Below are positions 63,415 through 64,000 of a stretch of 64,000 nt of DNA, piece by piece. The notes beneath the pieces were generated by a model that had not been told where the DNA came from, made no database searches, and saw nothing but the letters and a program-made list of their open reading frames with translations. Numbering within the stretch: position 1 is the first letter of the stretch; each line of letters starts with the position of its first letter. Source of the DNA: Chloroflexota bacterium (GTDB lineage: Bacteria > Chloroflexota > Dehalococcoidia > SM23-28-2 > HRBIN24); the NCBI GenBank assembly GCA_030550295.1, contig JAUQPQ010000001.1, forward strand, positions 2,162 through 66,161, read 5' to 3'. The position numbers were made by a program, and so were the translations under genes.

Positions 63415-64000
63415 TCAATCCTCGATGTAATCCTGAAAGGCCCGAGGCGCCTCCACGCCATCGCGCTTTTTAACCTTAATTAGCTCGAAGAGGCTGTGCG
63501 CATGGGCATCGCCGTAGGGGCTCTGGTGAGTGAATATATAAATGCCCCGGACGGACATCTCGCCTCGCAGGGCTGAGCGATCTAGCTCGAACATGTTTTC
63601 CAGGGCATCCCAAAAAAGCCTCAGGTCTTCTTTGCGCACACCGGTCTGCTTGGCCAATGTGGGATTGAAGAAGCCGTGAGCGCGTTAGAGGCCGTAAGGA
63701 ATGTTAGGCTTGCGCCCTATCTCCGTCTCCCCCCTCTCTTGTCTCTCCTCAGTCGTCCGCGCTTTGCGGATGATAGTCCAGGCTATGGGGAAAACAGGAT
63801 CGATGCTGCGAGCGAACACTAGCTGCACGGGCCCTCTCACCTGGCCAGCGTTTATTTTGCCGGTGGACAGCACGCCACCAAACAAACGGATATCGTAATA
63901 TTTTCGGCACAACGCTTGGGGCACGTCGTCATGGGGGCGCCGACTCAGTTCCCGTTTTTCGGCATCAGACAGCTGATCGTAGCCCGTGAGCTTTTTGCCA
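63415..64000 (-). pseudogene. cas7: CRISPR-associated Cas7 (Csd2/DevR-type) gene fragment interrupted by in-frame TAA; N-terminus beyond window
   Basis: The frame continuous from the window edge reads ...GKKLTGYDQLSDAEKRELSRRPHDDVPQALCRKYYDIRLFGGVLSTGKINAGQVRGPVQLVFARSIDPV...NIPYGL, then TAA at 63685-63687. The same frame then continues ...[63 protein letters not shown]. I call it Cas7 because of its resemblance to type I-C/I-B Cas7, judged from memory. Confidence 0.45.

Follow-up and report, generated by a model that had tools for sequence, protein, structure and literature searches.

The cas7-like frame that enters the analysed DNA at its far end (a stretch of 64 kb, referred to here as the window) is almost certainly the 3′ end of a type I-C CRISPR-Cas operon that has decayed into pseudogenes and no longer functions; it lies on the chromosome of an uncultured thermophilic member of the Chloroflexota. 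It is an ordinary decaying relic, neither a sequencing error nor a new system, and the TAA that interrupts its cas7 is one among at least 12 disabling lesions. The family identity of the locus, the extent of its lesions, its recurrence in independent assemblies, the excess of polymorphism and the past purifying selection are all shown by the analysis, and none of the evidence gathered argues against its status as a pseudogene. An earlier note on the window had proposed a decaying CRISPR-Cas remnant whose effector module is disrupted, and lesions were indeed identified throughout cas3, cas5d, cas8c and cas7.

The cas7 (csd2) pseudogene is represented in the window by its 3′ two-thirds and runs on past the edge (Table 1). 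The minus-strand translation of 63415-63999 reads GKKLTGYDQLSDAEKRELSRRPHDDVPQALCRKYYDIRLFGGVLSTGKINAGQVRGPVQLVFARSIDPV...FQDYIED*, in which the TAA, located between ...IPYGL and RAHGFFNP..., is the sole internal in-frame stop; the peptides quoted earlier for a Cas7-like frame that stops at this TAA and then resumes were recovered exactly. With the internal stop set to Tyr, the 194-aa read-through protein matched Pfam PF05107 Cas_Cas7 (E=9e-57, 192.9 bits vs a cutoff of 33.2) and, as a partial read-through covering profile positions 89-266 of 284, NCBIfam TIGR02589 cas_Csd2 (189.4 bits vs a curated cutoff of 182.25), which bears out the Csd2-type assignment of the earlier note, made there with a profile search as its proposed check. 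The two halves on either side of the TAA each matched Cas7 profiles separately. The closest intact protein to the repaired Cas7 was P0001 (313 aa, 81% identity), with the next matches at or below 67%. P0001 belongs to L013 (ENA ERZ511473 NODE_105), a complete cas3-cas5d-cas8c-cas7-cas4-cas1-cas2 operon followed by an array of 37-nt repeats, GTTGCACCCGCCCTTCGGGGCGGGTGAGGATTGAAAC. By tblastn, the intact Cas7 of L013 showed 79% identity over 201 aa to the part within the window, and the codon homologous to the TAA reads TAC in the L013 operon.

Two further lesions, additional to those given in the earlier note, were detected within 63415-64000, namely a −1 frameshift in an A5 homopolymer and a premature TGA. 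On L001, a contig that extends the locus beyond the window, three-frame translation placed the first 100 cas7 codons in a different frame, and tblastn gave two HSPs, in frames +2 and +1, abutting at L001 9223/9229; Cas7 residues 3-92 were recovered in one frame and residues 95-295, with the TAA, in another. The ancestral run would have been A6, giving ...PDLAKKLTGYDQLSD..., because with one A restored the remnant reads PDLAKKLTGYDQLSD and no gap is needed to align it to PELRDKLQRYDALSD of P0001. At the other end, P0001 goes on with ...DYIVEVPPEGDLADFGFPRVHLAHLYPKADRR beyond the point where the remnant ends. Instead of the uninterrupted ORF of about 280-315 aa that a full-length Cas7/Csd2 requires, there is a frame broken by a frameshift, a TAA and a TGA, and the remnant is a pseudogene of the Cas7/Csd2 family rather than a functional member.

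Table 1. Features of the cas remnant and its 3′ boundary; positions are those of the window unless contig L001 is named.
Feature	Position	Strand	Remarks
cas7 part within the window	63415..64000	-	about residues 95-285 of the 313-aa intact homologue P0001
A5 homopolymer, cas7 −1 frameshift	63992..63996	-	from three-frame translation of L001 and tblastn
C/G substitution, polymorphic	63920	-	assembly L004
1-bp deletion, polymorphic	63734 (= L001 9488)	-	assembly L005
Nonsense TAA	63685..63687	-	in place of Tyr of the conserved PYGLY motif; in all assemblies
Premature TGA closing the last cas7 fragment	63415..63417	-	about 30 codons short of the stop of the closest intact homologue
GAGGATTGAAAC	63412..63423	-	identical to the final 12 nt of the L013 CRISPR repeat; candidate cas7/last-repeat deletion junction
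Non-coding spacer, cas7 remnant to lipoprotein-like gene	63222..63411	-	
cas7 remnant	L001 8954-9825		
cas8c fragment	L001 7340-8915		Pfam Cas_Csd1 label
cas5d fragment	L001 6851-7243		Pfam Cas_Cas5d label

Contigs carrying the locus were found in several metagenomes by exact-protein look-up with the neighbouring lipoprotein-like gene. L001 (26 kb, ENA ERZ27245615) is 100% identical to the window, as is L002, and reaches 9.2 kb past the edge; it holds the locus in the opposite orientation, with its position 9222 corresponding to window 64000. Outward from the edge, it carries the rest of cas7, pieces of cas8c (csd1), a cas5d fragment, cas3 fragments, tRNA-Pro(GGG), DUF429, DUF5656, mfd and pth. 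The absence of adjacent cas genes stated by the earlier note is therefore correct downstream of cas7 but not upstream, where the cas8c, cas5d and cas3 pseudogenes lie just past the window edge; the note had itself pointed beyond position 64000 for cas5, cas8 and cas3, and all three are there as pseudogene fragments.

Lesions were mapped by tblastn of the seven Cas proteins of L013 against L001. In cas3, only residues 171-248, 247-277, 336-463 and 538-721 of the L013 reference are left, in four frame segments with two in-frame stops (TAG where the reference has TGG, and TAA where it has GAT), and residues 1-170, which constitute the HD nuclease domain, as well as 278-335 and about 464-537 are gone. 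Thus, in place of a Cas3 with HD nuclease and helicase domains, only fragments of the helicase region were identified. The cas5d fragment begins directly after the cas3 stop and retains residues 90-227, the first 89 codons having been lost. cas8c retains residues 83-598 in three frames, with two frameshifts and one in-frame TGA, and its residues 1-82 (approximately) were undetectable on L001 by tblastn. The three effector genes are still adjacent and in the order cas5-cas8c-cas7 (tblastn E 1e-52 to 1e-65), all of them disrupted.

The tRNA-Pro(GGG) gene is located at L001 5497-5573, about 3.65 kb past the window edge, and was the only hit in an Rfam scan of the cas remnant. Only 72 nt separate its end from the first cas3 homology (reference residue ~171), so the deletion of the HD domain abuts the tRNA gene. 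A search at the far end of the remnant for att-like direct repeats of the tRNA 3′ end, which would mark an integrated island, gave none, and no transposase genes flank the remnant. In the composition profile, the remnant has a GC of 0.54-0.60, slightly below its flanks.

Intact Cas4, Cas1 and Cas2 gave no tblastn match on L001, and the adaptation module cas4-cas1-cas2 expected downstream of cas7 is missing. The next gene downstream is instead a lipoprotein-like ORF (62355-63221, minus strand) with no family match, in agreement with the unrelated lipoprotein gene noted before, which begins 190 nt beyond the cas7 stop. Within the intervening spacer, no cas4, cas1, cas2, leader or repeat was detectable (best repeat match 17/37, p=0.68). 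The earlier note saw no array within 1.7 kb, and none was detected in the whole 64-kb window (TRF and k-mer spacing scan) or in L001. In place of an array with repeats ending ...GGATTGAAAC, there is a lone 12-nt match at 63412-63423; hence there is no CRISPR array, as was claimed, but it may not be wholly gone, as these 12 nt equal the end of the relative's repeat.

The likeness to L013, a type I-C (Dvulg/Csd) locus, extends to the order and orientation of the surviving fragments, which are the same. Identities to the L013 proteins are 79-83% for Cas7, 71% for Cas5d, 34-72% for Cas8c and 63-81% for the Cas3 fragments (63-68% for the longest three), and the 12-nt vestige corresponds to the 3′ end of the L013 repeat. 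In contrast to L013, every gene is disrupted here. Cas3 is without its HD domain, cas5 and cas8c are without their 5′ portions, and there is no cas4, cas1, cas2, leader or array. The context differs as well, being a tRNA-Pro and a lipoprotein gene here and, in L013, acyl-CoA metabolism genes and an OLD-family ATPase. A search of species-representative genomes with the repaired Cas7 gave relatives at 44-56% identity only, which served for the repeat consensus and not for synteny. Within the stretches fetched, 26 canonical repeats were counted in L013 (13086-14955) and 42 in L015, and two other assemblies of the intact relative (L014:8721-8830 and L016) have a single canonical repeat with one spacer and then a degenerate terminal repeat, GTTGCACCCGCCCTTCGAGGTACCTGAGGACTGAAAC; these short arrays are probably an assembly collapse across strain-variable spacers. 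In the intact relative, the array is followed by the OLD-family ATPase gene and an ISL3 transposase.

At the 3′ boundary, the last cas7 fragment ends GAG GAT TGA AAC, and its DNA identity to the L013 cas7 is high through TACATCG and is then lost at GAGGATTGAAAC, which was compared with the L013 repeat as a stand-in for the ancestral one, L013 being the relative with 81% Cas7 identity. The core of this 12-mer, GGATTGAAAC, closes the repeats of three other related type I-C loci without variation. It occurs once in the window, where 0.06 occurrences are expected, and the chance of the full 12-mer at any one position is about 3e-8. Its orientation relative to the cas genes is that of the intact loci, as expected for a collinear deletion. 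L013 cas7 reads ATCGTCGAGGTG at the homologous place and has GAGG in common with the repeat (GGGTGAGGATTG), in keeping with a microhomology-mediated deletion. Judged from these sequences, cas4-cas1-cas2 and the array were probably lost in one deletion at the GAGG microhomology, which would have fused cas7, at about codon 285, with the final 12 nt of the terminal repeat. We lean, a little less firmly, to the fuller reading in which GAGGATTGAAAC is the scar of one microhomology-mediated deletion of about 3-4 kb that took cas4-cas1-cas2, the leader and the whole array, and that could be the founding inactivation.

It is also conceivable, and to our mind a serious though lesser possibility, that the TGA is a plain nonsense or indel lesion in a variable cas7 tail, that GAGGATTGAAAC is a coincidence, and that the deletion which took cas4-cas1-cas2 and the array began at the native cas7 stop or beyond it. 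This would fit the tblastn alignment, which carries Cas7 six codons past the TGA (YIED*NP--DLAD vs YIVEVPPEGDLAD), with an in-frame match of DLAD / GACCTGGC to the intact tail, a tail that varies among homologues; in addition, GAGG, 4 of the 12 nt, is also present at the homologous place of the relative's cas7. However, local alignment to the intact tail showed that the coding similarity past the TGA is not above chance (DNA p=0.26; protein p=0.32), and ATTGAAAC, which comes right after GAGG, is the invariant type I-C repeat 3′ end in four related loci, with a chance of occurring there of about 1e-5 as estimated from base composition. As a control, a chance 12-nt match to the GC-rich middle of the L013 repeat, GGCGGGTGAGGA, was found at window 50895-50906 (plus strand), which shows that 12-mers of this GC-rich repeat can arise by chance in the genome. 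No second degenerate repeat was found at spacer distance after GGATTGAAAC. A metagenome scan with the 22-mer just past the putative junction returned the already known contig only, and no intact syntenic locus with which to compare the junction was found through lipoprotein orthologues, EF-G-anchored loci or the metagenome scan. For the cas7 3′ boundary, we hold the deletion scar to be the likelier origin, and the plain nonsense lesion keeps a considerable share of the probability.

The structure of the locus is common to nine metagenome assemblies from at least 8 samples and three data sources (ENA ERZ27245615; Logan SRR27730046, SRR27730034, SRR27730026, SRR27730045, SRR27730013 and SRR21619491; JGI 3300009585 and 3300000865). 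The cas7 TAA is present in all nine, with no variation at the site. An error of sequencing or assembly in an otherwise intact cas7, which the earlier note had allowed for, would need just a single-base change from TAC to TAA, and the source is a metagenome assembly. Since the TAA recurs in these independently assembled contigs, it is not an error; furthermore, cas7 has the frameshift and the premature TGA too, and all the other cas genes are broken, so that the probability left to this explanation is negligible. We give just as little credence to a stop that is read through or recoded (for instance TAA as Tyr, or programmed frameshifting), by which full-length Cas7 would still be made. Its attraction is that the TAA falls exactly at a conserved Tyr codon and that the frameshift lies in a slippery A-run, but TAA serves as an ordinary stop elsewhere in the window, closing 9 of the 45 large ORFs, so recoding is not credible. 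Moreover, in-frame TAA, TAG and TGA are all present within the remnant, the lesions vary between strains, and a repaired Cas7 would be without partners, as Cas3, Cas5 and Cas8c lack large segments. The remnant bears a superficial resemblance to derived effector-only systems, having neither adaptation genes nor the Cas3 HD domain, and one could think of a minimal, repurposed Cascade like the transposon-associated or regulatory type I derivatives. This too is very improbable, for the three Cascade genes are all truncated, frameshifted or stopped, no array or other crRNA source was found in the 64-kb window and its 9-kb extension, transposase genes do not flank the locus, and its diversity, indels included, is raised.

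Several lesions are polymorphic among the assemblies. The cas3 TAG reads TGG in L004, the cas8c TGA reads GGA in L003 and L004, and three distinct 1-bp deletions were found, at L001 6715 (in L002 and L006), L001 7346 (in L004) and L001 9488 (in L005). The summed pairwise differences amount to 22 in 27.5 kb of the remnant vs 15 in 55.3 kb of flanking genes, that is, about three times the diversity of the flanks (odds ratio 2.9, Fisher p=0.0013), the assemblies not being independent lineages. The polymorphic lesions and this excess over the flanks mean that the locus is still decaying, and neutrally. A comparison with the intact L013 genes over 834 codons gave a dN/dS of 0.08, with dS saturated; purifying selection thus acted during most of the divergence, and for the greater part of its history the locus worked. 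The inactivation is therefore recent relative to the split from the L013 relative.

The window is chromosomal, with ClpB, DnaB, NadE and EF-G among its genes. Its EF-G shows 72% identity to that of 'bacterium HR25' and 66-68% to proteins of Chloroflexota/Dehalococcoidia MAGs. Some of the sample names point to a series of hot-spring sediments, from which we infer a hot-spring origin. Relatives with 78% EF-G identity (L025-L029) share with the window the gene order EF-G, a 630-aa protein, RsmD, CoaD and a Scy-like gene. Past the Scy-like gene, they have RluD, LspA, MutL and MutS; here it is followed by two GH130 genes, the lipoprotein gene and the cas remnant (window 58275-63263), and this break of synteny places the cas remnant in a rearranged segment. 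The two GH130 (glycoside phosphorylase family) ORFs overlap (59120-62201, plus strand), and the second, with 648 aa about twice the usual length, suggests a tandem-domain fusion. Among 5.8 billion proteins, the lipoprotein-like gene has just three homologues, with identities of 58-67%, and when these orthologues were checked for an intact ancestral site, their neighbourhoods proved unrelated. A perfect 12-nt tandem duplication within the lipoprotein-like gene (GCCCTCCCAGCG, 2.2 copies, 63087-63113) encodes GRWEGRWEG. A TTGACA-17 nt-TATCAA arrangement noticed by eye upstream of this gene fails the criteria of the sigma-70 consensus scan, which detected no promoter in 63000-64000. Further away, a 628-aa ORF (55345-57231) without an NCBIfam match carries a 24-nt tandem repeat (ACACCTACGCCCAGGCCTACTCCC, 2.7 copies, 90% match, 57151-57215) at its 3′ end.

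In type I-C systems, Cas5d processes the crRNA, Cas5, Cas8c and Cas7 form Cascade, and Cas3 degrades the target. The ancestral operon here was cas3-cas5d-cas8c-cas7-cas4-cas1-cas2-array and would have worked in this way. Deletion has since taken the entire adaptation module and the array; the HD nuclease domain of Cas3 and the 5′ portions of cas5 and cas8c are gone too, and the remaining 4.2 kb is gathering stops, frameshifts and small deletions neutrally; the order of these events in the decay of the operon is one that we infer. As no part can assemble Cascade or make crRNA, the locus does nothing today, and the state of its sequence predicts neither interference nor crRNA-processing activity.

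Pseudogenisation and loss of CRISPR-Cas loci are already well documented. In 'Ca. Endomicrobium trichonymphae', the loci are pseudogenised or missing and differ among genomovars (PMC5174739), members of the Bacillus cereus group have lost or inactivated systems (PMC7242445), and another study deals with what CRISPR immunity costs bacteria that carry beneficial plasmids (PMC3784566). The present locus resembles documented decay in its mixture of large deletions and point lesions, in the differences between near strains and in the loss of the array together with damage to cas genes; unlike those cases, its host is a free-living hot-spring Chloroflexota population known from metagenomics alone.

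For annotation, the ORF fragments should be recorded as cas pseudogenes and should not be counted in surveys as a CRISPR-Cas system or as a 'solo Cas7'; beyond annotation, the locus matters little. It is mildly interesting only for a deletion scar that may derive from a repeat and for its record, at strain level, of decay still under way. The locus does offer a tidy natural case of the death of a type I-C system, in which large deletions preceded or accompanied point lesions, stops and indels that differ between strains build up on a common scaffold, and a deletion scar derived from a repeat may be preserved; it may be of use in studies of CRISPR-Cas turnover in hot-spring Chloroflexota. If the scar reading is true, the deletion could have been the founding event, perhaps an escape from self-targeting, followed by neutral decay in a natural hot-spring population, and the strain-level snapshots of later lesions would record how the operon decayed.
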